From positions 1 to 45,401 of the forward strand of contig DATAOL010000027.1 in NCBI GenBank assembly GCA_036265755.1: 45,401 bases of DNA. The letters run 5' to 3'. The notes under the pieces were generated by a model. The model was not told where the DNA came from and made no database searches. It saw only the letters and a list, made by a program, of their open reading frames with translations. A program made the translations under genes and the position numbers. Origin of the DNA: Gaiellaceae bacterium (GTDB lineage: Bacteria; Actinomycetota; Thermoleophilia; Gaiellales; Gaiellaceae). Within the stretch, counting starts at the first letter, position 1. Each line of letters opens with the position of its first letter. Below, in pieces: positions 11,309 to 45,401 of the stretch.

Positions 11309-11493
11309 TCCGGCCCCTCCCTGCGGGCGCGGTCGATCTCGGCCTGGATCTCCTTGGCGAGCTCGGCCAGGCTCTGGAGGACGTCGACCGCCTGCTCGGG
11401 ATCCTCCGTCGCCTCGAGCTGTGCCCGTGCCTGCTCGAGGCGGTCGAGCAGGTCTTGCAGCCGCGCAACCGACTCGGGCTCCTGGGTACTCAT
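11305..11493 (-). CDS. xseB: Exodeoxyribonuclease VII small subunit
   Basis: Trimmed from ORF 11305..11685 to ATG 11491-11493 (ATGA overlap with the nusB stop). 62 aa, helical, MSTQEPESVARLQDLLDRLEQARAQLE...LAKEIQAEIDRA, typical XseB. It sits in the classical xseB-ispA position. Confidence 0.85.
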   Translation of the reverse strand: MSTQEPESVARLQDLLDRLEQARAQLEATEDPEQAVDVLQSLAELAKEIQAEIDRARREGPE

Positions 11494-11870
11494 CGCTTCG
11501 CCTCCTTTGCGACCTTGCCGAGGATGCCGTTGACCAGCTTCGCAGCGTCGTCCGACGCGTACCGCCGTGCAAGGCGCACTGCCTCGTCGATCGCGACCTC
11601 GAGCGGGACCTCGTCGCGCTCCAGCTCGAAGAGGGCGATCCGGAGGATGTTGCGCTCGAGCGCGCCGAGCCGGTCGGGCCGCCACTCGGTGGAAGCCTCC
11701 CCGATGGCAGCGTCCAGGTCAGCCGCCTCCGCCGCCACGCCTTCGGCGAGCTCCTGCGTGTACGGGTCGAGCTCGCCCTCGTAGAGGGAGGCGAGCGGTT
11801 GCCCTGTCACATCCGACTGGTAGAGGACGAACAGCGCCGCGCGGCGAGCTGCGCGCCGCCCCGTGCTCAT
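11490..11870 (-). CDS. nusB: Transcription antitermination factor NusB
   Basis: Trimmed from ORF 11490..12065 to ATG 11868-11870 (ATGA overlap with the accC stop). RRAARRAALFVLYQSD...LERNILRIALFEL...AIDEAVRLARRY...KLVNGILG. Confidence 0.9.
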   Translation of the reverse strand: MSTGRRAARRAALFVLYQSDVTGQPLASLYEGELDPYTQELAEGVAAEAADLDAAIGEASTEWRPDRLGALERNILRIALFELERDEVPLEVAIDEAVRLARRYASDDAAKLVNGILGKVAKEAKR

Positions 11871-13231
11871 GCCGCGCCCCCGTGCAGCGCCTCGAGGGAG
11901 GCCGCCGCGTCCACAAGGAAGGACGTCGAGTAGTCGCCGCTTGCGAACTCCTCGCTGGAGACGATGTCGAGCGCGAGATCCTTCGTCGTCGGTACTCCTT
12001 CCAGCTCGAGCTCGGTGAGGGCGCGCCGGCCGCGTGAGAGGGCAACCTCTCGGTCCTCGCCCCACACGATCACCTTCGCGATCAGAGAGTCGTAAAAGGG
12101 CGGGATCGTGTAGCCCTCCTCCACGTGTGTGTCCACGCGCACGCCGGGCCCGAGCGGAGGGTGGAAGCGCGTGACTTGGCCCGGCGCGGGCCGAAAGTCG
12201 TCGCCGGGATCCTCGGCGTTGATCCGAAACTCGATCGCATGCCCACGGAGCGTGGCCCGGCCTTCCTGCGGCAGGCCCTCACCGGCCGCGACTGCGAGCT
12301 GCCCGTGGGCGAGGTCGATGCCTGTGACGAGCTCGGTGACCGGATGCTCGACCTGCAGGCGGGTGTTCATCTCGATGAAGTAGAACTGCCCGTCCGCGTC
12401 GAGGAGAAATTCCATCGTCCCCGCTCCGCGGTAACGGAGGGTCTCGCAGGCGCGCTGCCCCGCTCCCTCCATCTCCGCGCGGATCTCGGGCGTGACCGCG
12501 GGCGAGGGCGACTCCTCGACGAGCTTCTGATGACGGCGCTGGATGGAGCAGTCGCGCTCGCCCAGCGTGAGAACGGCACCCTCCCCGTCCCCGAGAACCT
12601 GGATCTCGACGTGCCTGGCCCCGACGACGGCCTTCTCCACGTACAGGGAGCTGTCCCCAAAGGCCGACTGGGCTTCGGACGCAGCGGTGCGGTAGGCGGC
12701 CTCGAGCTCGCCCGGGGCCTCGACGAGCCGCATGCCGCGGCCGCCACCGCCCGCCGAAGCCTTGAGGAGGAGCGGGTAGCCGATCTCGCCCGCAACGTCG
12801 CGCGCCCCGTCCAGATCGACGGCTCCGTCCGACCCGGGCACGAGCGGCACGCCAGCCTCCGCCATCGCCTCCTTCGCCGCGATCTTGTCGCCCATCGTCT
12901 CGATCGTCTCAGCGCGCGGCCCGATGAAAACGAGATCGTTGTCCTCGCAGGCGAGCGCGAAGGCCACGTTCTCGGCAAGGAATCCCCAGCCGGGGTGAAC
13001 CGCGTCGCACTCGGTCGTCGTCGCGGCCGCGACGAGGGACGGGATCCGCAGGTAGCTTTCGGCCGGAAGCGGCGGGCCGATTTGGACAGCCCGGTCGGCC
13101 ATACGGGTGTGAAGGCTGTCGCGGTCCGCGGTGGAGTAGACGGCGACGGTCTCGATGCCGAGCTCGCGGCAGGCGCGGATGACGCGGACGGCGACCTCGC
13201 CACGGTTTGCAATCAGGACGCGCCGAAGCAT
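11867..13231 (-). CDS. accC: Biotin carboxylase subunit (acetyl-CoA carboxylase type)
   Basis: 454-aa ORF. MLRRVLIANRGEVAVRVIRACRELGI, ATP-grasp region [32 protein letters not shown]. Confidence 0.95.
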   Translation of the reverse strand: MLRRVLIANRGEVAVRVIRACRELGIETVAVYSTADRDSLHTRMADRAVQIGPPLPAESYLRIPSLVAAATTTECDAVHPGWGFLAENVAFALACEDNDLVFIGPRAETIETMGDKIAAKEAMAEAGVPLVPGSDGAVDLDGARDVAGEIGYPLLLKASAGGGGRGMRLVEAPGELEAAYRTAASEAQSAFGDSSLYVEKAVVGARHVEIQVLGDGEGAVLTLGERDCSIQRRHQKLVEESPSPAVTPEIRAEMEGAGQRACETLRYRGAGTMEFLLDADGQFYFIEMNTRLQVEHPVTELVTGIDLAHGQLAVAAGEGLPQEGRATLRGHAIEFRINAEDPGDDFRPAPGQVTRFHPPLGPGVRVDTHVEEGYTIPPFYDSLIAKVIVWGEDREVALSRGRRALTELELEGVPTTKDLALDIVSSEEFASGDYSTSFLVDAAASLEALHGGAA

Positions 13232-13346: not shown

Positions 13347-15167
13347 CTAGAGGGCGTCGAGGGGGCGGCCGTTCAGAGGCTCCAGCTCGAAGAGGAGCTG
13401 GCCATACTCGACCGGCTGCGCGTTCTCCACGCAGACCTTGCGCACGACCGCCTCCACGTCCGCCTTCACCTCGTTCATGAGCTTCATCGCCTCGAGGATG
13501 CAGAGCGTCTGCCCCGGCGCGACGGGATCGCCCTCCTCGACGAACGGCTCGGCTCCGGGCTCGGGCGCCCGGTAGAAAGTGCCGACCATCGGCGACTCGA
13601 CCCGGATCGTGCCGTCGGCCGGCGGCGCGATCGAAGCCGCGGCCTCGTCGGTGACTCCCCCGGCGACCGGCGCGCCGACCGCTGCCCCGGCCATCGCCGC
13701 GGTCTCGTCGCTTCGCCGCACCGTAACGCGCGTCTCGCCTTCCTCGATCGTCACTTCACCGATCCCCGACTCCTGCACGATGCGGATGAGCTCGCGGATC
13801 CTGTCGGCCTCAGCCTGCTCGATTCCCGCGCCCGCGAGGCTCTCGGCGTCGCCGCCGCGACTTCGGATCGAGCGGAGCAGCGGCTCGGCCTCGTCTCCGA
13901 AGAGCGCGAGGAGAAGAAGCTCCTCGTCACTCGTAGCCAACCCCTCGGCAGCATCGCGGACCTCGTCGATCTCCATGGGCTCGTCGTTGCGGGTGGCACC
14001 CTCGCCGATGAGCTGGACTGCCCGGCGGACGACCGGGTCGATCTCTCCGGGCGGCGAACCGAACCGCCCCTCGATGAGGTCGCGGAGCTCGTCGACGACG
14101 ATCTGCCAGCGCTGCGCGGAGAGGACGTGCAGCACCGCCTGGGAGCCGAAGATCTGCCCGATCGGCGAAGCGAGCGGCGGCCAGCCGCACTCGCGCCGGA
14201 GCTCGGTGAGCTCGTCGAGCACCTCATCCAGCCGATCGGAGAACCCATGTGCCCGCAGGTTCGCGTCGAGCTCGGCGACGAGCCCTGCCGGAAGACTGTG
14301 CTCGGCGGCCCGAACCGCAACCCGCGGCGAGAGTGGCGGAACCGGCGCGTCGCCGAGCGCGTCGTCGACCAGCTCGGAGCCTCGCCAGAGCGTCTCGAGG
14401 TCGACATTCGAGTCGACGTCGAGCCCGGCCAGGGACTGGGTCAGTGACTCGGCCGAAACTCGATGCAGCGAGAGTGCGATCGGATACAGGGCGCACGCGA
14501 TGACGTCGGCACCTGCCCGCGCCGCTTCGAGCGACGACGCGAGTGCAGCGCCTCCCGCGCCCTGGCAGTAGAGACCGACCGGAAGCGAGCTGGCCTCCCC
14601 CACCCGCTCGACGAGCTCCCGCGCCATGGCCGGGTGCAGCGAGCCCGACGGATCGTGGATGAGGACGCGCGAGGCGCCTAGCTCGCTCAGGTGGTGCGCG
14701 CGCTCCATGAGGACGTCCGCGTCGCCGCCCGGCCCCGGGCTGTGCACGAGGCCCACGGCGAGCTCCTTGCCGGCGTCGCGAACTCCGTCAGCGGCATCCC
14801 GGAGGTTGGCGAGGTCGTTGAGCGGGTCGTGGATGCGGAAGATGTCGATGCCGCTCTCGGCCGCGCTCGCCACGAAACGCGTCACGAGCTCGCGCGAGAG
14901 CGGCCGCGACCCGACGAGCAGTCGGCCCCGCAATGCCATGCCGAGAGGCGTCGAGCAGCGCGAGCGGATGGCGCGGATGCGCTCCCACGGGCTCTCGAAC
15001 CCACGCCGGACGGCCGAGTCGAAGCAGCCTCCTCCGGAGACCTCGAGATACGCGAAGCCCGCGGTGTCCAGGATCCGGGCGAGTTCGAGCACGCGTGAGG
15101 ACTGCATGCGCTGTGCGAGCGGCTCCTGCGAGAGAAGGCGGATGCTGGTGTCGACGAGAGCCGGCAC
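13347..15167 (-). CDS. AccB-type biotin carboxyl carrier protein with an N-terminal OadA/PycB-like carboxyltransferase domain that appears to lack its metal ligands
   Basis: 606-aa ORF with a GTG start 3 nt after the efp stop. Residues ~1-450 are colinear with HMGL-like plus PYC_OADA domains (LEVSGGGCFDSAVRRGFESPWERIR, IDIFRIHDPLNDLANL, SDRLDEVLDEL...SPIGQIFGSQAVLHVL). Residues ~455-606 are a complete AccB (IRELIRIVQESGIGEVTIEEGETRVTVRR; SPMVGTFYRAPEPGAEPFVEEGD; CILEAMKLMNE with biotinyl-Lys562 at nt 13482-13484). Confidence 0.9.
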   Translation of the reverse strand: MPALVDTSIRLLSQEPLAQRMQSSRVLELARILDTAGFAYLEVSGGGCFDSAVRRGFESPWERIRAIRSRCSTPLGMALRGRLLVGSRPLSRELVTRFVASAAESGIDIFRIHDPLNDLANLRDAADGVRDAGKELAVGLVHSPGPGGDADVLMERAHHLSELGASRVLIHDPSGSLHPAMARELVERVGEASSLPVGLYCQGAGGAALASSLEAARAGADVIACALYPIALSLHRVSAESLTQSLAGLDVDSNVDLETLWRGSELVDDALGDAPVPPLSPRVAVRAAEHSLPAGLVAELDANLRAHGFSDRLDEVLDELTELRRECGWPPLASPIGQIFGSQAVLHVLSAQRWQIVVDELRDLIEGRFGSPPGEIDPVVRRAVQLIGEGATRNDEPMEIDEVRDAAEGLATSDEELLLLALFGDEAEPLLRSIRSRGGDAESLAGAGIEQAEADRIRELIRIVQESGIGEVTIEEGETRVTVRRSDETAAMAGAAVGAPVAGGVTDEAAASIAPPADGTIRVESPMVGTFYRAPEPGAEPFVEEGDPVAPGQTLCILEAMKLMNEVKADVEAVVRKVCVENAQPVEYGQLLFELEPLNGRPLDAL

Positions 15168-15170
15168 GGC

Positions 15171-15737
15171 CTACGCCCGCGAGATGTAACGCGCCTCGCG
15201 CGTGTCGACCTTGATGCGGTCGCCGACGTTCACGAAGAGCGGCACCTGGACGACGGCGCCGGTCTCCAGCGTGGCGGGCTTGGTCACGTTCGAGACGGTG
15301 TCGCCCTTCACGCCGGGCTCCGTCTCGACGACGGCAAGCTCCACCGAGGCCGGAAGGTCGACCCCGGAAGGACGGCCGTCCACGAGCAGGAGCATGAGCT
15401 CGCTCGACGGCTGCATGTAGGGGAGCTGGTCCTCGAGCTCTGCGTGCGGCAGCGAGATCTGCTCGTAGTTCGAGTTGTCCATGAAGACGACCTCGTCGCC
15501 CGCGTCGTAGAGGTACTGCACGCTCTTCGTCTCGGTATGGACGCGCGGCATCTTCTCACCCGCCCGGAAGGTTCGGTCGACGACGGAGCCCGAGTCGAGG
15601 CTCTTCAGCTTCGTACGCACGAACGCGCCGCCCTTGCCGGGCTTGACGTGCTGGAACTCGACGATCCTCCATACCTGGCCGTCGAGCTCCACATGCATGC
15701 CGTTCTTGAACTGGTTGGTGGAGACGGTTTCCGCCAA
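15171..15737 (-). CDS. efp: Elongation factor P
   Basis: 188-aa ORF with a TTG start at 15735-15737. STNQFKNGMHVELDGQVWRIVEFQHVKPGKGGAFVRTKLK is classic EF-P. Confidence 0.95.
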   Translation of the reverse strand: MAETVSTNQFKNGMHVELDGQVWRIVEFQHVKPGKGGAFVRTKLKSLDSGSVVDRTFRAGEKMPRVHTETKSVQYLYDAGDEVVFMDNSNYEQISLPHAELEDQLPYMQPSSELMLLLVDGRPSGVDLPASVELAVVETEPGVKGDTVSNVTKPATLETGAVVQVPLFVNVGDRIKVDTREARYISRA

Positions 15738-17247: not shown

Positions 17248-18642
17248 CTACTTCCGGATCAGGGCGTCGAGAGCCTCGCGTGCTGGCTCGTCCGCGACGG
17301 TCGTGACGATCGGCCGGCCGGGCCCCTCGAGGAGGACGAAGACGCCCTCGCCTTTCTTGTCGCGCTTGAGCGCAGCCCAGGCGGCCTCCCGGTCGGCCGA
17401 GACCGGCTCCGGGCGCAGCACTTCGTCGACGGGATCGGTCGGCTGGCCCGAGAGACGCAGCGCCGCCAGCAAGCCGAGCGCCACGGCGTCCCCATGGGAA
17501 ACCGTGTAGCCCGATCCCGTCTCGAGCGCGTGAGCGAACGTGTGCCCGAGGTTGAGCACGGTTCGGCGGCCTTCCCGCTCGAACGGATCCGAGAGGACGA
17601 CGCCGGCCTTGTAGGCGGCACAAGCCCGGATCATCTTCTCCTCGCCGAGCGCCCAGACATCCTCGCCTGCGAGGAGTCCCGTCTTCACGACCTCGGCCAT
17701 ACCGGCCCGCCGCTCGGTCTCCGGGAGGGTCTCGAGATAGGCGCGGTCGATGATGACCCCGGCCGGGAAATGAAAGGCGCCCGCGAGGTTCTTGCCCTCC
17801 GCCGTGTCGATACCGGTCTTCCCGCCGATGGCGGCATCGACCATGCCGGTGAGCGTCGTCGGGACCGCTACCCACGGGACGCCGCGCAGATGCGTCGAGG
17901 CCGCGAATCCGACGACGTCGGTCGTCGAGCCGCCGCCGAAGGCGAGAAGCCAGCCGTCCCTCCCGATGTCGAGCTCCCTCCAGAGCCGCTCGACCACCGC
18001 GAGCGTCTTGGCGGCCTCGCCGGCCGGGAGCGAGAGGGAGGGACCCGGGACGGGCGGCGAATGGAGCTGCAGCACCCGCTCGTCGGCGACCACGACGGAC
18101 GGGCCGGCGAGGCGGAAGGAGCCCCCGCCGAAGCCGATCCGCAGGGCGCCAAGGAGAACGCCGTCCGGGTCGTCTGCCGTCCACTGCGCGACGGCGGAGT
18201 AGACCTTCCCGCGGTCGTCGTAGAGACGCCTGAACGCAGCCTCGTCCCGGGCCAGAGGCCGGTTCGAGCCACGCACGCGCTCCCATGCACTGTCGACGTC
18301 CACGTCGAGCAGGACGGTGTACGCGTGGGCCGAAAGCCGCTCTCGCGTCCTCGCGGAGAGGACCGCGCCCCCGCCCAGCGCGAGAACCGCGGGCGGACCG
18401 GCGAGAGCCTCGGCGACGACCTGCTCCTCCAGTCGGCGGAACTCCTCCTCCCCGCCCTCGAAGAGCTCGGGAATCGGGCCGTGGCGACGCTCGATGTCGG
18501 CGTCCGTGTCCACGAAGGGCCGGTGGATCCGCTCGGCGACGGCGCGGCCGACGGTCGTCTTGCCCGCCCCCATGAACCCGATGAGGGCGAGGTGCTTGCC
18601 TAGCGCCCCGACCACGGGATGCGCTCCAGGTACGCGCGCCAC
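17248..18642 (-). CDS. aroB: Bifunctional shikimate kinase / 3-dehydroquinate synthase (AroK-AroB fusion)
   Basis: 464-aa ORF. The N-terminal ~150 aa are shikimate kinase (LIGFMGAGKTTVGR, DTD, GGGAV). The remainder is DHQ synthase (FGGGSTTDVVGFAAS, VPTTLTGMVDAAIGGKTGI, GKNLAGAFHFP, LNLGHTFAHALE, HGDAVALG). The start is GTG at 18642 (43-nt overlap with aroC) or GTG at 18615. Confidence 0.9.
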   Translation of the reverse strand: MARVPGAHPVVGALGKHLALIGFMGAGKTTVGRAVAERIHRPFVDTDADIERRHGPIPELFEGGEEEFRRLEEQVVAEALAGPPAVLALGGGAVLSARTRERLSAHAYTVLLDVDVDSAWERVRGSNRPLARDEAAFRRLYDDRGKVYSAVAQWTADDPDGVLLGALRIGFGGGSFRLAGPSVVVADERVLQLHSPPVPGPSLSLPAGEAAKTLAVVERLWRELDIGRDGWLLAFGGGSTTDVVGFAASTHLRGVPWVAVPTTLTGMVDAAIGGKTGIDTAEGKNLAGAFHFPAGVIIDRAYLETLPETERRAGMAEVVKTGLLAGEDVWALGEEKMIRACAAYKAGVVLSDPFEREGRRTVLNLGHTFAHALETGSGYTVSHGDAVALGLLAALRLSGQPTDPVDEVLRPEPVSADREAAWAALKRDKKGEGVFVLLEGPGRPIVTTVADEPAREALDALIRK

Positions 18643-28855: not shown

Positions 28856-29266
28856 CTAGCCGGCGAACCGCCAGCGGATCGTCTCCCGCCCGCGGACGCC
28901 GAGATCGTCGGCGAGCGCCGGAGAGAGGGAGAACTGCGTCCGGGTGCCAGCAGGGCCGCGCTCGACCACCTCGGTGCGCACCTCCCGCCCGTGGAGGGCG
29001 ACCACGAGGGCGGCACCGCATGGGAGTACCGGGTGGGCAATGCCCTGCATCTCCTGGGTGAGGACGACTCCGCATGAAGTCGTCTCGCCGAGCCGCCCTC
29101 GGCCGAACACGCCGACCAGGGCGTTCTCCCAACGCGCTTCGGACACGGGCGGCTGGGCGGCAGCGGCGGGCTCCTGAACGGAGCGGTGGAGGACGACGAC
29201 CAGGAGGATCGCCAGGAGCGCCGCTCCCGCCAGCGCGGCCTGGCGCTGGAGGGCGGCCGGGCTCAC
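28856..29266 (-). CDS. Membrane-anchored RlpA-like double-psi beta-barrel (DPBB) domain protein
   Basis: 136-aa ORF (GTGA overlap with the upstream stop). It has an N-terminal TM helix, then GETTSCG...GIAHPVLPCGAALVV...VRTEVVERGPAGTRTQFSLSPALADDLG, which follows the RlpA/DPBB pattern (TA.GE / AH..LP.G / V.DRGP...IDLS.AA...LG). Confidence 0.6.
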   Translation of the reverse strand: MSPAALQRQAALAGAALLAILLVVVLHRSVQEPAAAAQPPVSEARWENALVGVFGRGRLGETTSCGVVLTQEMQGIAHPVLPCGAALVVALHGREVRTEVVERGPAGTRTQFSLSPALADDLGVRGRETIRWRFAG

Positions 29267-30132
29267 CGGCCGGACTGTCTATCGAGCAGGCCTCCGAACG
29301 ACTCCCTGACGAGCCCATCGAACTCGGTCGGAAGCTCACCGCCCGCGTTTGCGAACTGTCGAAGGTGCACGAAGAGAAATGCCCATTCGTCTCGACGCTC
29401 TGGGTGCGACGGGGCCTCCGCGCGCGCCAGGCGCTCCAGATCCCAGATGTTCCACTGGCGCGCTACGTAGCTTCGCTGCTGGAGGGCGACGACCGGCGCT
29501 TCCGCGGGGGGCGGCGGTGACGGGGCGGCGGCGGGCTCGACAGGAGGCGGCACCGCGCGCAGGCGCCTGCGCCGCGCCCAGCGGGGCCGCTCGGACTCCG
29601 GGACCATGGGTCGCTCGGAAGCCGGTCGCTCGGAAGCCGGCGACTCCACAGCCTCCAGCGCCGGCTCGCGCGCCGGTTCGGGCTCCGGCTCGGCCTCGGG
29701 CTCTGATCGCCGCTCGAACTCCGGTTCCGGCTCTGGCTCCGGTTCCGGAGGCCCTTCCGTCTCGATGGGTGCCTCTGGCTCCTGGTCGGCTTGTGTCTCC
29801 GGCTCCACGGCTTGAGCCTCTGGCTCGGGCTCGAACCGCGCCTCGGCGGGCGGCGCGAGATCGGGGATCGGCGCCGGCTCGGGCGGCGCCTCGGCCGCCG
29901 GCGGGGCTGGAGGCGGGGAAGCGACCGCAGCCGAGCCGGATTCGACCGCCGCTACGGGCCCGCGCGCGGAGCGCCACGCGAGCCACTCGATGGTCGCTGC
30001 AATGAGCCACGCTAGCCCGACGAGCGGTAGAGCCACTGCGAGACGGAGGTCGGCCAGCCAGACGGCCACCGCCACGAGGGCGATGAAGATCATGAGCGCG
30101 ACGAGGCGCAGAGACGAGACGAACGGCGGCAC
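29263..30132 (-). CDS. Membrane protein with a long acidic Pro/Glu/Ala-rich linker and a conserved-looking C-terminal domain (hypothetical)
   Basis: 289-aa ORF with a GTG start. It has two N-terminal TM helices, ~160 aa of low complexity (PEPEPEPEPEFERRSEPEAEPEPEP, ASERPASERP), and then a globular tail (YVARQWNIWDLERLARAE...WAFLFVHLRQFANAGGELPTEFDGLVRESFGGLL). Confidence 0.65.
   Translation of the reverse strand: MPPFVSSLRLVALMIFIALVAVAVWLADLRLAVALPLVGLAWLIAATIEWLAWRSARGPVAAVESGSAAVASPPPAPPAAEAPPEPAPIPDLAPPAEARFEPEPEAQAVEPETQADQEPEAPIETEGPPEPEPEPEPEFERRSEPEAEPEPEPAREPALEAVESPASERPASERPMVPESERPRWARRRRLRAVPPPVEPAAAPSPPPPAEAPVVALQQRSYVARQWNIWDLERLARAEAPSHPERRDEWAFLFVHLRQFANAGGELPTEFDGLVRESFGGLLDRQSGR
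29609..29638. repeat. Perfect 2 x 15-bp tandem duplication (ggtcgctcggaagcc) inside the acidic linker of the 29263..30132 CDS
   Basis: The duplication is visible directly in the sequence and encodes ASERP-ASERP on the minus strand. It is embedded in a GAGCC/GGCTC-rich low-complexity tract. Confidence 0.9.
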
Positions 30133-30150: not shown

Positions 30151-31056
30151 CTACGTGCTCGGCGGGTTCGCGTCCGGCTCGCCGCCCTCATCGTCCTCCG
30201 CGGCCTCCGCAGCAGCGGAGGGGCCTCCCGGAGAACTGGGCGGTTCGGACGTCGTTTCGGGCTCGTCCTCGGTCTCGGGCTCGCTCGGCGTCGGCACGGC
30301 GACGGGCTCTGCAGCGGTGACGCCGCTCGGCTTGGGGACCGAGCTCTCGGCAGCGCGGACGATCGCATCGACGGCCTCGTGGATCGCAGCTTCGCCGTGT
30401 CCCGCGGCGGAGAGCAGCTGCTCGGCGCCCATGCGAGCGCGCTGGACGATGACGTCGGCCTGGGCGCGTGCCCACTCGAGCGTCTGCTCGACCTCGGCGC
30501 GTGCCGAGTTCGTGAGCTCCGTCGCCTGGTGGCGCGACTGCTCGAGCAGGCGATTGCCCCTAGTCTCGGCGTCGTGCAGCTCCGAGCTCGAGTCTCGGTT
30601 CGCCTTCGTGAGGATCTCACGAGCCTCGTTACGGGCTGCGTTCAGGATCTCGCCGCGCTGGCGCTCCGTCTCCTGGCGGATGCGCGCGATCTCGGCCTCG
30701 CGCTGCTGGAGCTCCATCTGCGATTCGCGGATCTCCTGCTCGGCCTTGCCCACCTGCTTGGCGGCGGCTTCCTGCGCGTCGCGCTCGATCGTGTCGGCGA
30801 ACTCGGCGGCGGAGCGGATGAGGTGGAGGGCGTCCATGCGCACCGCATGACCGGAAGGCTCCGTGATCGCGCTCCGCGGAGCTGCTTGCAGCACGCGCAG
30901 CTGCGCTTGCATCGCGGTCACGTGCCGGCGGAAGGCATCGAACGCCTCGCTGACCTTCTCGCGGTCGTATCCCTCGCCTGCCCGCGGGATGTCCTCCAGA
31001 CGGGGCAGCGGCGTGAGGGACGGCCCGCCTGCGCGACTTGGATCTTGACTCGACAT
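30151..31056 (-). CDS. DivIVA domain-containing coiled-coil protein
   Basis: 301-aa ORF with an ATG start preceded by GGAGG 10 nt upstream. It has the N-terminal DivIVA-type motif (GEGYDREKVSEAFDAF), a long heptad-rich central region and an acidic Pro-rich tail. Confidence 0.7.
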   Translation of the reverse strand: MSSQDPSRAGGPSLTPLPRLEDIPRAGEGYDREKVSEAFDAFRRHVTAMQAQLRVLQAAPRSAITEPSGHAVRMDALHLIRSAAEFADTIERDAQEAAAKQVGKAEQEIRESQMELQQREAEIARIRQETERQRGEILNAARNEAREILTKANRDSSSELHDAETRGNRLLEQSRHQATELTNSARAEVEQTLEWARAQADVIVQRARMGAEQLLSAAGHGEAAIHEAVDAIVRAAESSVPKPSGVTAAEPVAVPTPSEPETEDEPETTSEPPSSPGGPSAAAEAAEDDEGGEPDANPPST

Positions 31057-40737: not shown

Positions 40738-41553
40738 ATGCGGGTACACATCATCAGCGACATCGAGGGGGTCGCGGGCGTGGTCAAGTCGGAGCAGGGC
40801 GACGGCGGCGAGTCGCTCTTCGAGGAAGCACGGCGCCTCTACACGGAGGAAATCAACGCGGCGATCCGCGGCTCCTGCGCGGCCGGAGCGAACGAGGTCG
40901 TCGTCATGGACTGCCACGGAGCCGGGAAGGGCTGGGACTTCAACTCGCTCCTGCCGGAGGCGCTCGACGAGCGCTGCGAATGGGTCGTCCAGCGCGAGTG
41001 GACGGAGTACACCGGCTTCCTCGAGGAGGGCTGCGACGCGGCGCTCTTCATCGGCATGCACGCGCGCGCCGGCGTCGCCGACGGCGTTCTCAACCACACG
41101 ATCTCCGGTTCGGACATCTACGAGCTTCGCTTCAACGGGACTCCGGTCGGCGAGACCGGGATCAACGCGGCTCTCTGCGGGAGCTTCGGGTGTCCGGTCC
41201 TCCTCGTCACGGGCGACCAGGCCGTCTGCCGCGAGGCCACCGAGCTCCTCGGCGACGGACTGACGACCGTCGCCGTCAAGCAGGGGCTCGGGCGCGAGAG
41301 CGCCCGCAATCTCGCCCCGAAACGGGCCCGAGCGATGATCGAGGAAGGCGCCAAGCGGGCACTTGCCGATCTGAATGCAGTTTCGCCATACGACCCCGGC
41401 CAGCCCTGCGAGATCGAGGTGGCGATGATGGGCTCCCATCTCGTGGAGGCGTACCGGCGCCGACACGGTGTCGAGGTCGTGGACGGCCGCCGCATGGTCT
41501 CGCGCGCAGACGACTGGTGGACGGCCTGGAGGCAGTTCTGGCCGATGTACTGA
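40738..41553 (+). CDS. M55 family D-aminopeptidase (DppA-like)
   Basis: 271-aa ORF with an ATG preceded by GGGAGG. MRVHIISDIEGVAGV, VVVMDCHG, FIGMHARAG, PVGETGINAALCGSFGCPVLLVTGD, TVAVKQ. Confidence 0.85.
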   Translation: MRVHIISDIEGVAGVVKSEQGDGGESLFEEARRLYTEEINAAIRGSCAAGANEVVVMDCHGAGKGWDFNSLLPEALDERCEWVVQREWTEYTGFLEEGCDAALFIGMHARAGVADGVLNHTISGSDIYELRFNGTPVGETGINAALCGSFGCPVLLVTGDQAVCREATELLGDGLTTVAVKQGLGRESARNLAPKRARAMIEEGAKRALADLNAVSPYDPGQPCEIEVAMMGSHLVEAYRRRHGVEVVDGRRMVSRADDWWTAWRQFWPMY

Positions 41554-42842
41554 CGCGAGAACGCGAGGAGGCGCTTCCGCACGCTGAGCGGCCACCGCGG
41601 AGCCGTGCCTTCCATCTCCTGCAGCGCCGGGACTTCCGGCTCGCGTACGGCGCCATTGCGACGAGCGAGCTCGGCGATGCCTTCCAGTACATCGCGCTCA
41701 TGTGGTTCGCGCTCGAGGCGGGCGGACCGGTCGGCGTGCTGGTCGTCCGTCTCGCGGACAGCGTGCCCGCACTTCTCTTCGGCCTCCACGGAGGCCTCGT
41801 AGCGGACCGCTTCGAACGGCGGCGGACGATGATCGCGGCCGATCTCCTGCGAGGCGCGGTGCTCGTCCCCGTCGCGATCGCGGGGCTCGCGGGCCATCTG
41901 CCGCTCTGGGGGCTCGTCCTCGCCGCCTTCATCCTCACGGCCGCGACGAGCTACTTCGACCCGGCCTACGGCGCGCTCCTGCCGGCCCTCGTCGAGCGCG
42001 AGAACGTGCAGCAGGCGAACGCACTCGTCCGGGCGAGCGCGGACGCGATCGGGGTCGGAGGGTGGGCTCTCGCCGCAGGCCTGCTCATCTTCATCCCGCT
42101 CAGCGCGCTCTTCGCCGTCAACGCGGCGACCTTCTTCGTGTCCGCGGCCCTCATCGCTCGGATATGCGCGCGTCCGGCCGCAGCCGTCGCCGAAGGCACG
42201 TCGTGGGCGCAGACCCGCGAGGGGCTCGCCGCGCTCCGCCTCCTCCCGGTGCTCGCGGTGGCCGTCGTCGTCCTGGGCATCGCGATCACGATCGAATCCG
42301 GCACGTGGATGGTCGGGGTTCCGGAGCTCGTGCGCAGCGAGCTCGGGCACGAGGCGGGCGGATTCGCGCTCGTGATGATGGGCTACGCGGTGGGCTCGAT
42401 CGCCGGCGGCATCTACCTCGCGCGACGCCCCGTGCGCCGGAAGGCGTACGCAAGCCTGCTCGCCTGGTCGCTCTATCTTCCCGCCTACCTGCTCATGGGC
42501 CTCGCCGGGGTGCTCTCCGTGGCGGTGCTCGGAGCGTTCTGCGCAGGGCTCGGCCAGGGCTCGTCGGTCGTCCTTCTCCACTCCGCCGCGCAGCAGGACG
42601 TCCCCGACAACGTGCTGGGGCGCGTCATGGGGCTCATCAACCTCGTCCACCGCGGGGCCCATGCAACCGGGCTCATCTTCGTCTCGCCGCTCTTCGCCTT
42701 CTTCTCACCGCGGCCGATCTTCGTCGCTGCGGCACTCGCCGCGCCAATCGTCGGGATCGGCGGCGCCGTGGTCGCCCTCGCGCTCAGTCGTCGAGGAGGC
42801 GAAGCTCGAGGACGTGCCGCGAGTCGAAGCCCTCGATCCTGA
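41517..42842 (+). CDS. MFS transporter (MFS_3/EntS-like)
   Basis: This is the 3' part of tracked ORF 39843..42842. The first in-frame start downstream of the hutH-antisense region is GTG 41517, which overlaps the dppA-like end by 37 nt, so the start is uncertain. RDFRLAYGAIATSELGDAFQYIALMWF..., LHGGLVADRFERRR, and ~12 hydrophobic segments. Confidence 0.8.
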   Translation: MDGLEAVLADVLTREREEALPHAERPPRSRAFHLLQRRDFRLAYGAIATSELGDAFQYIALMWFALEAGGPVGVLVVRLADSVPALLFGLHGGLVADRFERRRTMIAADLLRGAVLVPVAIAGLAGHLPLWGLVLAAFILTAATSYFDPAYGALLPALVERENVQQANALVRASADAIGVGGWALAAGLLIFIPLSALFAVNAATFFVSAALIARICARPAAAVAEGTSWAQTREGLAALRLLPVLAVAVVVLGIAITIESGTWMVGVPELVRSELGHEAGGFALVMMGYAVGSIAGGIYLARRPVRRKAYASLLAWSLYLPAYLLMGLAGVLSVAVLGAFCAGLGQGSSVVLLHSAAQQDVPDNVLGRVMGLINLVHRGAHATGLIFVSPLFAFFSPRPIFVAAALAAPIVGIGGAVVALALSRRGGEARGRAASRSPRS

Positions 42843-43671
42843 GGAGGCTGCCCGCGGCTTCGACGGCCGCTCCGGCCGGCATCAGACCGACGAGCTCGCT
42901 GCCCGCGACCTCGGCGCCCCGGGCCTCCGCCTCCTCGACGATCGTCTGCACGATCTCGTGCAACGCCGCCGCCTCCCAGTCGGTGACGTTCATGCTCACC
43001 TGAACGAAACCCGCCTTGGGGAGATCGAGCCCGAGGGCCCGCACGCCGGGGAAACCGCCGTCGCGTTCCCGAACCCGCTGCGCGATCGCCCGTGCGTCGT
43101 CGACAGTCGCGCCGCGCAGGTTGACGTTGAAGGCGATCAGGGGCTGCCGGACGCCGATCAGGACTCCGCCCGCGCTCGGGTGCAGCGTGGTCGGCCCACG
43201 ATCGGGCGCGAGCTCGCCGGCGTCGATCCTCCGCTGCAGCTCGCCGGGGCCGCCACGGCGAAAGAAGGCCGGCTCACGTCCGCCCTCCGTCAGGCGCGCG
43301 TAGAAGAAGACCGGCAGACCGAGCTCCTCGCCGACCCGCTCCCCGAGCGCGAGCGCTGCCGCTTTCGCCGCCGGCTCGTCCTCCGGGCGAAGCGGGACGA
43401 GCGGGACGACATCGGCGGCCCCGATGCGCGGGTGGGCGCCTTCGTGCTTGCGGAGGTCGATCCGCTCGGCCGCGAACGCGATTCCGGCGAGCAGGGCCTC
43501 GACGAGCTCCTCCTCGGAGCCCACGAGCGTGAAGACGGAGCGATGGTGATCCCAGTCGGTGTGGACGTCGAGGAGCCGGGCGGGCTCGGAAAGGCAGCGC
43601 TCGAGCCCGGCGAGCGCCTCGGCGTCGCGACCCTCCGAGAAGTTGGGCACTGCTTCGAGCGGTAAGCGCAC
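42784..43671 (-). CDS. ftcD: Glutamate formimidoyltransferase (FtcD formiminotransferase domain only)
   Basis: Trimmed from ORF 42784..44025 to GTG 43669-43671. LEAVPNFSEGRD, HHRSVFTLVG, HEGAHPRIGAADVVPLVP, LIAFNVNL, GSELVGLMP are colinear with the FT domain of FTCD. There is no cyclodeaminase domain. Confidence 0.85.
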   Translation of the reverse strand: MRLPLEAVPNFSEGRDAEALAGLERCLSEPARLLDVHTDWDHHRSVFTLVGSEEELVEALLAGIAFAAERIDLRKHEGAHPRIGAADVVPLVPLRPEDEPAAKAAALALGERVGEELGLPVFFYARLTEGGREPAFFRRGGPGELQRRIDAGELAPDRGPTTLHPSAGGVLIGVRQPLIAFNVNLRGATVDDARAIAQRVRERDGGFPGVRALGLDLPKAGFVQVSMNVTDWEAAALHEIVQTIVEEAEARGAEVAGSELVGLMPAGAAVEAAGSLLRIEGFDSRHVLELRLLDD

Positions 43672-43677
43672 CGGTGC

Positions 43678-43683
43678 AGGATA
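43678..43683 (-). promoter_or_regulatory. Putative -10 box TATCCT, 6 nt upstream of the ftcD GTG start
   Basis: The minus strand reads TTTTATCCTGCACCG-GTG in the 58-nt divergent gap. A TACACT box (43707-43712, plus strand) faces the ABC gene. Confidence 0.3.
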
Positions 43684-43729
43684 AAAGCGAGCGGGAACCC
43701 CGTCGATACACTCGGCGTTGGGGGTACCC

Positions 43730-45401
43730 GTGGACCGCGCGAAGCATCCAAACCTGCACACATTCGGCCGTCTCGTCGGCTTTCTGCGCCCGTACCGCTG
43801 GTCGTTGATCGTGTCCATCGTCCTCGCGGTCGCCGCCCAGGCCGCCTCGATCGGGCTCGTCCGGCTGACGCAGAGCGTCATCGACTCCGCGATCCGCCCT
43901 CGAGACGAGCGGATGCTGTGGATCCTGATCGGGGTGATCCTCGGAGTGGGGCTCGCCAAGGCGCTGCTCATGGTCGGGCGGAGGTTCATCTCCGGCCGGC
44001 AGGCGCTTGGCGTCGAGTTCGACATGCGAAACGCGCTCTACGCGCATCTCCTCCGCCTGTCGTTCGGGTTCTACGACCGCCACCAGACCGGCCAGCTCAT
44101 GTCGCGCGCGACCGTCGACCTGCAGGCGGTGCGGTTCTTCCTCGGCTACGGGCTCATTTTCTTCTTCCAGCACATCCTCACGATCGTCGGCGTCACGGCG
44201 ATCATGTTCTGGACGAACTGGAAGCTGGCGCTGATCACGCTCGCGATCACGCCGATCATCGTCGCGCTCGCGTATCGGTACTCGCACGTCTCGCACCCGG
44301 TGCTTCGCGACGTCCAGCAGAAGATGGCCGACGTGGCGACCGTCGCGGAGGAGAACATCGTCGGCGTCCACGTCGTCAAGTCGTTCGCCCAGGAGGCTCA
44401 GGAGCAGGCGAAGTTCCAGCGCCGGTCCGATGCGGTGTTCGACCAGAGCGTCCTCGCGAACCGGCAGCGGTCGCTCTACGTGCCGGTCCTGAGCTTCGTG
44501 CCGCTCCTCGCGCAGGCCGCCGTGCTCCTCGTCGGCGGCTGGATGGTCGTGCACGCGACCCTCACGGTCGGCGAGTTCTTCGCCTTCAACCTGTACGTGA
44601 CGATGCTGATCATGCCCCTGCGGATGCTCGGCATGTGGATCGGGCAATCACAGCGGGCGACGGCGTCCGGCGAGCGCATCTTCCAGATCCTCGACGAGCC
44701 GGAGGAGATCGCCGAGCGACCGGATGCGCAGGAGCTTCCGCCCGGTCCCGGGCGGGTCGACTTCGAGAGCGTCTCGTTCGGCTACGACCCCGAGCGCCTC
44801 GTCCTCTCCGGCGTCGACCTCGGGATCGCGCCCGACCAGAACGTCGCGATCATCGGGCACACCGGGTCGGGGAAGACGACCCTCACCGCGCTCGTGCCGC
44901 GCTTCTACGACGCAACCTGGGGGCGCGTCCTCATCGACGGCGTCGACGTGCGCGACGTCACGCTCTCCTCGCTCCGGTCGCAGATCGCGGTCATCTCGCA
45001 GGACCCCTTCCTCTTCTCGACCACCGTGCGCGAAAACATCGCCTTCGGCGCGCCGGCTGCGACCGACGACGAGATCGAGTCGGCCGCGCGCCTCGCCCAG
45101 GCGCACGATTTCGTCGCCGCCCTCCCGAACGGCTACGACACCGTCATCGGCGAGCGCGGGATCACGCTCTCCGGCGGGCAGCGGCAGCGGATCGCGATCG
45201 CGAGGGCGATCGTCCTGAACCCGCGGATCCTCATCCTCGACGACGCGACCGCCTCGGTCGACGCGACGACCGAAGCGCGCATTCGGCTCGGGCTCCGCGA
45301 GGCCATGCAGGGCCGGACGACGCTGATCGTGGCGCACCGGCTCTCGACGATCTCCCTCGCGGACGAGGTCGTCGTCCTCGACCACGGGCGGATCGCGGCG
45401 C
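43730..45401 (+). CDS. ABC exporter, fused permease/ATPase (MsbA/MdlB type), partial; runs off the right window edge
   Basis: Not in the ORF track because it has no stop in the window. The frame is open from GTG 43730 to the end. TMD: FLRPYRWSLIVSIVLAV..., FDMRNALYAHLLRLSFGFYDRHQTGQLMSR. NBD: Walker A GHTGSGKTT, Q-loop ISQDPFLF, signature LSGGQRQRIAIARA, Walker B ILILDD, H-loop VAHRLS. Confidence 0.9.
   Translation, partial: MDRAKHPNLHTFGRLVGFLRPYRWSLIVSIVLAVAAQAASIGLVRLTQSVIDSAIRPRDERMLWILIGVILGVGLAKALLMVGRRFISGRQALGVEFDMRNALYAHLLRLSFGFYDRHQTGQLMSRATVDLQAVRFFLGYGLIFFFQHILTIVGVTAIMFWTNWKLALITLAITPIIVALAYRYSHVSHPVLRDVQQKMADVATVAEENIVGVHVVKSFAQEAQEQAKFQRRSDAVFDQSVLANRQRSLYVPVLSFVPLLAQAAVLLVGGWMVVHATLTVGEFFAFNLYVTMLIMPLRMLGMWIGQSQRATASGERIFQILDEPEEIAERPDAQELPPGPGRVDFESVSFGYDPERLVLSGVDLGIAPDQNVAIIGHTGSGKTTLTALVPRFYDATWGRVLIDGVDVRDVTLSSLRSQIAVISQDPFLFSTTVRENIAFGAPAATDDEIESAARLAQAHDFVAALPNGYDTVIGERGITLSGGQRQRIAIARAIVLNPRILILDDATASVDATTEARIRLGLREAMQGRTTLIVAHRLSTISLADEVVVLDHGRIAA

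Follow-up and report, generated by a model that had tools for sequence, protein, structure and literature searches.

The closest described relatives of the gene reported here belong to biotin-dependent enzymes. In the two-subunit pyruvate carboxylase (PC) of Methylobacillus flagellatus (5KS8; Choi et al. 2016), the ~600-aa PycB subunit runs from a carboxyltransferase (CT) barrel through a funnel and a linker to a biotinyl domain, and is encoded next to a separate ~450-aa biotin carboxylase (BC) (PMC5059739). The enzyme also has a BT-like four-stranded sheet with an HGE motif and an Ala-rich C-terminal helix on its ~471-aa alpha subunit. CT domains of the PC type occur as obligate dimers, which make up the core of the PC holoenzyme (PMC5059739). 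The metal ligands of such a domain are, in L. lactis PC, Asp534, carboxy-Lys703, His732, and His734 (PMC9581989). The second point of reference is AccB of E. coli, the 156-aa biotin carboxyl carrier protein (BCCP) of acetyl-CoA carboxylase (ACC). We analysed contig DATAOL010000027.1 of a Gaiellaceae bacterium, a soil actinobacterium in the order Gaiellales (assembly GCA_036265755.1, positions 1 to 45,401), a stretch of 45,401 nucleotides referred to below as the window. The gene between efp and accC, a slot where a preliminary description of this DNA expected a BCCP of ~150 aa, encodes instead a 606-aa fusion of a PycB-like CT domain to a complete AccB, with all four metal ligands of the CT domain replaced. 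As far as the sequences indicate, what is new here is a pseudo-carboxyltransferase domain on an ACC biotin carrier; the CT and AccB parts are themselves of known kinds. The gene combines a CT-like domain, the AccB N-terminal segment, the thumb, and EAMK in one open reading frame (ORF) in the efp-accC slot, and we call proteins of this make-up long AccBs. Its parts are as follows.

13347–15167, minus strand: whole gene for the 606-aa long AccB (predicted pseudo-carboxyltransferase plus AccB), a single unbroken ORF
14358–15167, minus strand: HMGL-like (DRE-TIM) barrel of eight strands, a carboxyltransferase fold as in PC/OadA/5S but with its active site remodelled, aa 1–270 (AlphaFold2, Foldseek, PF00682)
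15135–15137, minus strand: Leu11 in place of the metal-binding Asp, RD changed to RL (HMMER alignments, clade counts)
14655–14657, minus strand: His171 in place of the carbamylated Lys, KDM changed to HDP (alignments, clade counts)
14562–14570, minus strand: Tyr200-Cys201-Gln202 at the position of the His-x-His ligands (alignments, clade counts)
13848–14357, minus strand: helical PYC_OADA "funnel" subdomain, aa 271–440 (PF02436 at aa 289–435, AlphaFold2 helices)
13713–13811, minus strand: AccB N-terminal segment ADRIRELIRIVQESGIGEVTIEEGETRVTVRR, aa 453–485 (phmmer to 4hr7_B residues 23–55, TIGR00531)
13611–13712, minus strand: Ala/Pro-rich flexible AccB linker, aa 486–519 (low predicted local distance difference test score, pLDDT; low conservation)
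13377–13610, minus strand: ACC-type biotinyl domain with thumb and EAMK, aa 520–597 (PF00364, alignment to 1bdo/4hr7, pLDDT 85–92)
13545–13568, minus strand: thumb, A534–P541 (APEPGAEP paired with E. coli TPSPDAKA)
13482–13484, minus strand: Lys562 of EAMKLMNE, predicted to carry the biotin (pairs with the biotinyl Lys of E. coli BCCP)

A phmmer search of the 606-aa protein against PDB chains revealed the beta subunit of M. flagellatus two-subunit PC (5ks8_C, E=1.3e-66) as the best match, with transcarboxylase 5S (1rqb, 6.8e-54) and V. cholerae OadA (2nx9, 5.4e-53) among the others. The alignments pair RD(A/G)HQS with RLLSQE, KDM with HDP, and H-x-H with Y-C-Q, and the spacing of the ligand positions in the protein, 160/29/2 residues, fits the carboxyltransferase family. 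An AlphaFold2 model built from an 80-sequence alignment (mean pLDDT 79.9) displays a clean eight-stranded barrel (strands at aa 3–6, 40–44, 75–80, 109–113, 135–141, 167–172, 197–202, and 222–226; pLDDT mostly 80–97), whose strands 6 and 7 end in His171 and Tyr200/Gln202, respectively. Foldseek placed 5ks8_D first for this model (E=9.6e-39); the superposition on OadA 2nx9 gave a TM-score of 0.81 with a root-mean-square deviation (rmsd) of 3.5 Å and that on 5S 1rqb a TM-score of 0.79, the rmsd against the two structures being 3.5–3.8 Å over ~460 columns. The N-terminal half had been assigned by eye to the PycB/OadA/5S-type CT fold, in agreement with the Pfam matches (HMGL-like at aa 121–267, PYC_OADA at aa 289–435), the model, and Foldseek.

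The ligand columns read D/K/H/H in 126 of 126 ligand-intact homologues, and this invariance means that the substitutions are not alignment noise. A by-eye error of register was ruled out, given that phmmer to PDB chains, MAFFT, hmmalign to a hidden Markov model (HMM) of the intact family, and AlphaFold2 with Foldseek were all concordant. The reported replacement of the four ligands was confirmed by the phmmer alignments, the model, and the intact homologues, and the codon coordinates given for Leu11, His171, Tyr200/Gln202, and Lys562 are arithmetically right against the ORF. No curated or solved family among NCBIfam models and PDB chains has these substitutions.

Comparison across the Gaiellales-type clade (n=151) disclosed how the site varies. 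Position 11 is Leu in 150 sequences and Val in one; position 171 is His in 145 and Leu in the other six, the latter forming one subfamily, while Asn, Asp, or Val occur there in fragments; position 200 is His in 100 and Tyr in 51; position 202 is Gln in all 151. The usual state is L-H-H-Q, with three of four ligands lost (100/151), and the window protein falls in an L-H-Y-Q minority (51/151), a sublineage with all four lost. The claim that all four ligands are gone holds for the window protein, but the state typical of the clade keeps the first His. Residues Arg10, Gln14, Arg80, Asp114, and Asp172 are invariant in the 151 sequences; among them are the arginine, the glutamine, and the LRG arginine (Arg80) that had been reported as kept. 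Relative to the intact homologues, Gln82 is changed to Arg, Met173 to Pro, Tyr203 to Gly, and Ser337 to Gly. Arg82, Pro173, Gln202, and Gly203 stand as new invariant pocket residues of the clade.

For the remainder of the active site, we take the catalytic Thr to be the equivalent of R. etli Thr882, and the biotin pocket to be formed by Tyr628 and QxPGGM, following what is known of the R. etli and S. aureus PCs. The Thr882 equivalent is Ser334 in the window protein and S/Q/A across the clade, the Tyr628 equivalent is Ser87 and S/T/A/P across the clade, and QVPGGM has become SLPAGL, with (R/S)xPAGL across the clade.

Family models tell the two halves apart in the same manner. The only NCBIfam model passed by the 606-aa protein is the AccB/BCCP equivalog TIGR00531 (135.8 bits against a cutoff of 115.2), with aa 456–596 covering model positions 5–155 of 156. 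It stays under the cutoff of every PycB, OadA, 5S, or PC model: the nearest is NF006761 for PycB (383.1 against 402), and the others include the PycB-type models NF010644 (226.5 against 734) and NF010645 (212.8 against 1182), the OadA model TIGR01108 (307.9 against 756.5), and the transcarboxylase 5S model NF008984 (215.6 against 827). On NF006761, intact long AccBs score 741–884 bits and degenerate ones 370–383; both kinds pass TIGR00531. A genuine OadA, PycB, or 5S enzyme was ruled out by these cutoffs, by the ligands, and by the neighbouring genes, as no oadB/oadG-like or 12S/1.3S gene was found near the 606-aa gene within the window. Judged from its residues, the CT domain of the window protein has almost certainly lost the ability to transfer carboxyl groups to pyruvate with the help of a metal.

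Relatives of the protein in the databases number in the thousands, and the best 120 are full-length (601–608 aa), 75–98% identical, and located on many independent contigs. JGI labels these relatives as "oxaloacetate decarboxylase (Na+ extruding) alpha subunit" and NCBI/PGAP as "acetyl-CoA carboxylase BCCP [Gaiellaceae/Gaiellales]". In a genome survey with one genome per species, at least 13 Gaiellaceae/Thermoleophilia-type genomes hold the full-length gene at 56–87% identity, and the order aroC...efp-X-accC-nusB...recN is common to the 13 Gaiellales-type genomes. The fuller order aroC-aroK/B-aroQ-pepP-efp-X-accC-nusB-...-tlyA-nadK-recN was traced through the window, these 13 genomes, Firmicutes, Coriobacteriia, and other Thermoleophilia. 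The efp-accB-accC-nusB slot itself was seen at loci L001-L030, L081, L083, and L084, and accC lies directly downstream of the accB-slot gene in every syntenic locus.

Outside the Gaiellales, full-length fusions of 31–37% identity occur in Clostridia (Peptococcaceae, Syntrophomonas, Desulfosporosinus fructosivorans, Thermincola) and Coriobacteriia (Adlercreutzia, Eggerthellaceae), placed between efp, or the spoIIIA sporulation genes after efp, and accC-nusB. Many other phyla have an ordinary accB of ~150 aa in the slot (L027-L080). The fusions of Firmicutes and Coriobacteriia all keep RD(A/G)(H/Q)QS, IKDMAG, and H-x-H; those of the Gaiellales type all read RLL(S/G)QE, HDP, and (Y/H)-x-Q. The nearest intact relatives, the P0147 family from metagenome-assembled genomes (MAGs) of Thermoleophilia, are 40% identical to the window protein, and the gene order around one of them, in GCA_016235065.1 (P0340, locus L081), is identical to that of the window. 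Since intact Thermoleophilia relatives occur in an identical gene order, the class ancestor already had the fusion, and it was the Gaiellales branch that lost the metal site; as read from these sequences, the Gaiellales L/H/(H or Y)/Q is the derived state. On the same reading, what is special in Gaiellales is the loss of ligands and not the fusion architecture. The suggestion that the architecture is novel therefore stands in part: no literature description was found, but the fusion is old and orthologous in some Clostridia, Coriobacteriia, and other Thermoleophilia.

The ligand-intact long AccBs are orthologous to the window protein by synteny, share its architecture and AccB-type carrier, and are 31–40% identical to it; PGAP names them AccB in Clostridia, Coriobacteriia, and Thermoleophilia alike. 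Unlike the window protein, they keep D/K/H/H, the catalytic Thr, and the equivalents of Tyr628 and PGGM, and they are presumably active pyruvate carboxyltransferases. Examples are WP_135547679.1 of D. fructosivorans (L019:9986-11884) and WP_165247632.1 of Adlercreutzia sp. ZJ141 (L026:10001-11875). In the intact proteins at L013-L028 and L081, one BC/BCCP pair may serve both pyruvate and acetyl-CoA carboxylation.

A Gaiellales-type gene of 63% identity, with the full aroC-to-recN order, was also seen on a contig filed under "Verrucomicrobiota bacterium MAG241" (L018, JBLMYA010000075.1), which has probably been mis-binned, or else the MAG is mislabelled.

To place the change in time, we compared the two halves of the protein among lineages. 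The biotinyl domains of Gaiellales, Firmicutes, and Coriobacteriia are equidistant at 55–57% identity. The CT domains of Firmicutes and Coriobacteriia share 50–55%, and those of Gaiellales share 31–35% with either; with the biotinyl domain equidistant, this difference points to a burst of CT change on the Gaiellales stem. Within the Gaiellales clade, identity is 69% in the TIM barrel and 73% in the biotinyl domain. The ratio of nonsynonymous to synonymous change (dN/dS) in the TIM domain, rough as an absolute value, was 0.09–0.25 in six pairs and not above that of the carrier. Taken from these comparisons, the CT domain is now under purifying selection and is not a decaying remnant.

This constraint is unevenly spread over the former active site. 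In 14 Gaiellales-clade sequences of <80% mutual identity, the entropy of the half that served biotin and the proton shuttle (Thr882) has drifted to background, at 1.06 bits (domain mean 0.93, P=0.70). The floor that held metal and pyruvate has 0.19 bits (P about 0.001) and is far more conserved than the domain average, a value that is partly circular in that positions 11 and 202 defined the clade, although the other seven of the nine positions average the same. Both halves are near zero entropy in the intact homologues.

Ligand loss has recurred elsewhere in the family. We compared 433 representatives clustered at 50% (E<=1e-30). In those with AccB-type carriers, many ligand states occur besides D-K-H-H and L-H-(H/Y)-Q, among them S-K-D-D, D-M-H-H, D-N-H-R, D-T-H-R, and D-K-S-K, upheld by alignment on the HMM from the intact family, and classic PycB/OadA-type carriers are nearly all D-K-H-H. 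One to four ligands are replaced in the thumb-carrier proteins P0166, P0175, P0179, P0181, P0182, P0188, P0206, P0217, P0222, P0227, P0245, and P0248, with IMDE, INDI, LTDV, HxR, and SAK among the replacements in such fusions. The S-K-D-D family comes from Thermoleophilia MAGs and occupies an efp-X-accC-asp23-nusB slot (P0176 and P0447; L083:10001-11842 and L084:10001-11872); it has RSL.. for RDxHQS, a kept Lys followed by Thr, and DLD for HxH, and the Pfam HMGL-like match is often lost. In a neighbour-joining tree of AccC, this family groups with the intact Thermoleophilia (bootstrap 67%, versus 16% for the other grouping); monophyly of Thermoleophilia and that of the Gaiellales clade each have 100% support. 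The tree together with the entirely different replacement residues suggests at least two independent ligand losses, the residues being the stronger argument given the modest tree support. That other AccB-type fusions lost their ligands in different ways would imply that the role of the domain outlives catalysis.

The carrier half retains the features of ACC. It had been described as a complete ACC-type BCCP, which is supported by the TIGR00531 match and by an end-to-end alignment of aa 453–597 with E. coli BCCP (4hr7_B residues 23–173, E=1.1e-26) that takes in the N-terminal segment, the Ala/Pro linker, the thumb, and EAMK. Biotin_lipoyl (PF00364) matches at aa 523–595 with E=6.6e-20, EAMKLMNE is aligned to the EAMKMMN motif of E. 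coli, and Lys562 is invariant in 151/151 sequences of the Gaiellales-type clade and 126/126 intact homologues. The thumb, YRAPEPGAEPF, pairs with E. coli YRTPSPDAKAF with no gaps, and its residues are missing from classic PycB/OadA representatives (PMQG..KV). To our knowledge, the thumb insertion is specific to ACC and does not occur in carriers of PC, propionyl-CoA carboxylase, or transcarboxylase. The AccB N-terminal segment and the Ala/Pro linker are both present, and the segment appears to correspond to the BC-contacting part of BCCP: the part of E. coli BCCP homologous to aa 453–485 is present in the BC-BCCP complex structure. The linker is the least conserved part of long AccB (30% identity among the Gaiellales clade), and pLDDT falls below 50 at residues 467–516.

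Two genes enclose the fusion.

11867–13231, minus strand: accC, biotin carboxylase, 454 aa, 115 nt downstream of the 606-aa gene (Pfam, NCBIfam, motifs)
15171–15737, minus strand: efp, directly upstream of the 606-aa gene (Pfam EFP_N, EFP, Elong-fact-P_C)

The 606-aa gene starts with GTG, 3 nt past the efp stop codon, in agreement with the MPALVDT... start of its homologues, and its GC content at third codon positions (GC3), 0.88, is similar to that of the adjoining genes. AccC contains Biotin_carb_N, CPSase_L_D2, and Biotin_carb_C, passes NF006367 (652 against a cutoff of 597), scores 623.4 against 626.5 on TIGR00514, shows GGGGRGM, EMNTRLQVEH, and EFRINAED in its translation, and ends in ...VDAAASLEALHGGAA. 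By these sequence hallmarks of function, all of which are kept, the carrier and the adjacent AccC would both be active. The absence of an accA/accD-type gene noted before was borne out, with no Carboxyl_trans or ACCA domain among the window ORFs scanned with Pfam, and neither the window nor the syntenic loci that we looked at contained a CT gene of any type.

Comparison with the described systems places the window protein between PycB and AccB. It resembles PycB in length, in the order of its domains, and in its separate BC neighbour, with 5KS8 as the best match in both sequence and structure. It differs in that the metal ligands are all replaced, the catalytic Thr is Ser, the PycB cutoff is not reached, and the biotinyl domain has an ACC-type thumb. 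Moreover, the linker between CT domain and BCCP is the AccB N-terminal segment rather than a BT-like four-stranded sheet with HGE, and AccC, at 454 aa, is without the Ala-rich C-terminal helix, 19 residues long, on which the BT-like domain is nucleated. No BT-like domain was found in the 606-aa protein, whose alignment with 5ks8_C covers only aa 6–433 and 539–597, the part between them being AccB. With E. coli AccB (4HR7 chain B/1BDO) it shares the carrier aligned over its full length, the passing of TIGR00531, and a gene upstream of accC near efp-nusB, but adds a 450-residue N-terminal CT-like domain. The CT fold is shared with OadA (2NX9) and 5S (1RQB), in contrast to which the ligands are lost, the scores lie far under the cutoffs, the carrier is AccB-type and fused, and partner genes were not seen nearby.

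In plastid ACCase of plants, BADC proteins are non-biotinylated BCCP look-alikes that regulate the enzyme. As an analogy only, they too are (PMC12706156) a dead biotin-enzyme component retained in or regulating the ACC machinery. In BADC, however, the dead part is the carrier and not a CT, and BADC is a separate polypeptide of another lineage that is not homologous to the N-terminal domain described here.

Full-text searches of the literature turned up neither a CT-AccB fusion occupying the accB slot nor a CT domain devoid of its ligands. Long AccB is not mentioned in the survey of biotin carboxylase evolution (PMC3199775) or in the paper on two-subunit PC (PMC5059739), and the Thermoleophilia marker paper mentions only an indel in AccC (PMC6544083).

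The window is made up of housekeeping genes, in the order aroE, aroC, fused aroK-aroB, aroQ, pepP, efp, the 606-aa gene, accC, nusB, ispA, tlyA, nadK, and recN, with pyrG, alaS, aspS, hisS, and a histidine-utilisation cluster further out. The fused shikimate kinase and 3-dehydroquinate synthase form a 464-aa ORF (17248–18642, minus strand; SKI at aa 24–157, DHQ_synthase at 204–311, DHQS_C at 314–400 with 101/144 profile positions matched); at L081, L083, and L084, from other Thermoleophilia, aroK and aroB are separate genes of ~175 and ~363 aa. The longest nusB ORF (11490–12065, minus strand, 191 aa) shares ~200 nt with the 3' end of accC; Pfam NusB and the homologues span aa ~68–189, and the true start is probably just 3' of the accC stop. 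Two adjoining ORFs at 29263–30132 and 30151–31056 (both minus strand; 289 and 301 aa) have a GC3 of 0.80–0.85 and no Pfam match at E<=1e-5. Inside the histidine-utilisation cluster, ~1.2 kb at 41553–42784, between a D-aminopeptidase gene (40738–41553, plus strand) and a formiminotransferase gene (42784–44025, minus strand), carries long ORFs in either direction, matches no Pfam family, and gives no clear GC3 signal.

As to what the protein does, we consider it probable, if only somewhat so, that it is an AccB orthologue in which the CT domain has become a pseudoenzyme, retained as a dimerising or assembly scaffold, possibly still able to bind an anion. The C-terminal 150 residues would be a normal biotinylatable ACC-type carrier charged by the adjacent AccC. 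The intact AccC motifs and Lys562 suggest that a functional BC/BCCP pair is maintained and thus that an acceptor enzyme exists in trans, where it must act because the CT in cis is dead; the carrier would then pass carboxybiotin to a carboxyltransferase encoded elsewhere. The enzyme concerned is probably acetyl-CoA carboxylase, to judge from the thumb, the AccB N-terminal segment, and the slot in which the gene lies. The N-terminal 440 residues would descend from a functional carboxyltransferase of the pyruvate carboxylase type that, on the Gaiellales stem, lost its Asp/carbamyl-Lys/His-x-His site and its biotin and proton-shuttle residues. Since CT domains are obligate dimers (PMC5059739), a dead dimer would still pair two carriers, and the domain could have been retained as a folded, non-catalytic module that does so and organises the AccC-AccB complex. 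In the absence of the BT-like sheet and of the Ala-rich helix on AccC, BC would not be contacted in the PC way; contact would be made in the ACC way, through the AccB N-terminal segment. The pocket floor of Arg10, Gln14, Arg80, and Arg82 may still bind a small anion, a function that we rank, as a sensor, second to the structural role. The preliminary description had proposed a scaffold or a sensor; both stay conditional here, and the analysis adds purifying selection and decay of the biotin and proton-shuttle half only.

Four points weigh against this account. A binding or even a catalytic role would agree better than a purely structural one with how strongly the pocket floor is conserved. His200, kept beside His171, Asp172, and Gln202 in two thirds of the clade, may form another, weaker metal site. 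The floor entropy carries the circularity given above, and dS values of 0.4–1.1 in a genome of 70% GC make the absolute dN/dS rough.

The best-ranked alternative, which we nevertheless regard as unlikely, is a regulatory pseudoenzyme whose pocket binds a 2-oxo acid or dicarboxylate like pyruvate or oxaloacetate, tunes the cycling of the carrier between AccC and the CT, and so couples malonyl-CoA synthesis to the pyruvate/oxaloacetate node. Invariance of the pyruvate-binding equivalents Arg10, Gln14, and Arg80 (151/151), the newly invariant Arg82, Pro173, Gln202, and Gly203, and a floor conserved far above average when the biotin side is not speak for this idea. The invariant Arg, Gln, and Asp residues could, however, be structural parts of the C-terminal face of the barrel; His171 gives way to Leu in one subfamily and to other residues in fragments; and the S-K-D-D and other degenerate families have remodelled the pocket differently, which argues against a common ligand. 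A wider form of the idea, which we hold to be more doubtful still, is that long AccB represents a class of biotin-enzyme subunit not recognised before. Its intact form would be a shared-carrier PC/ACC with a pyruvate CT in cis and an acetyl-CoA CT in trans, and Gaiellales, and independently other lineages, would have converted the cis CT to a ligand-binding pseudoenzyme, with malonyl-CoA synthesis gated by a 2-oxo acid or dicarboxylate sensed in the conserved Arg/Gln/Arg pocket.

The scaffold account assumes that AccC and long AccB belong to housekeeping ACC. It is conceivable, though improbable to about the degree of the wider idea just given, that they form a dedicated carboxylase instead, with the cis CT dead and the carrier serving another trans CT, for example an acyl-CoA CT of the PccB/AccD type like those of actinobacterial or archaeal enzymes. 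The 5S subunit of transcarboxylase binds a 12S core, and the N-terminal domain, which matches 5S with a TM-score of 0.79, may dock in a 5S-like way on a 12S-like core. Most Actinobacteria, moreover, lack ACC subunits of the E. coli type and use a BC-BCCP alpha subunit with a PccB-like beta subunit (Lombard and Moreira 2011, PMC3199775). What speaks against this possibility is that the carrier has the ACC thumb and the AccB N-segment and passes the AccB cutoff, that the gene sits in the ancestral accB-accC slot, and that the window and the syntenic loci yielded no CT gene that could be such a partner.

Residual or new catalysis by the N-terminal domain, as a neofunctionalised CT or decarboxylase that is metal-free or uses a new ligand set (His171/His200/Gln202/Asp172) and acts on pyruvate or another acceptor, is very unlikely. 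It would account for the strong purifying selection on the domain and for the near-invariance of Gln202, the Arg/Gln/Arg triad, and His171 (145/151), along with His200 in 100/151. Leu, however, is unable to ligate a metal and the carbamyl-Lys bridge is lost; with Tyr200 in the window and Leu171 in one subfamily, no ligand set is common to the whole clade; Ser, Gln, or Ala takes the place of the catalytic Thr; the residues that would touch biotin (equivalents of Tyr628, Gln, and PGG) vary at background entropy; and the protein is under every PycB/OadA/5S cutoff. It is chiefly the want of a clade-wide ligand set and the free variation of the biotin contacts that make this explanation so poor.

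An artefact, either an assembly or sequencing frameshift that fuses accB to a pycB-like gene or a pseudogene in decay, can be dismissed as practically negligible, as the frame is uninterrupted with uniform GC3 and a dN/dS well below 1, the fusion recurs on hundreds of independent contigs, with 601–608-aa orthologues of 75–98% identity on many of them, at least 13 genomes of different species have it, and nothing but a few "short" database versions such as P0178 speaks for it. P0178 (200 aa, 87% identical to aa 447–606) resembles a stand-alone short AccB from a close relative, but its first 41 residues are rich in Arg, Cys, and Ser and look out of frame, and it is probably a frameshifted or miscalled fragment.

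For the Gaiellales, these results suggest that thousands of metagenomic proteins from soil and other environments are mislabelled. The JGI label OadA predicts an activity that they almost certainly lack, and reconstructions of the pyruvate/oxaloacetate node built on it would be wrong in this order, while the PGAP label AccB hides 450 residues of the protein. If the intact orthologues are taken at face value, several Gram-positive lineages have a pyruvate CT physically fused to their housekeeping BC/BCCP pair, an arrangement that the published classifications in PMC3199775 and PMC5059739 do not cover. With one orthologous gene found in intact and at least two degenerate forms within one class, and the dead domain apparently under purifying selection, the family would offer a natural experiment on the retention of a domain after its catalysis has been lost.

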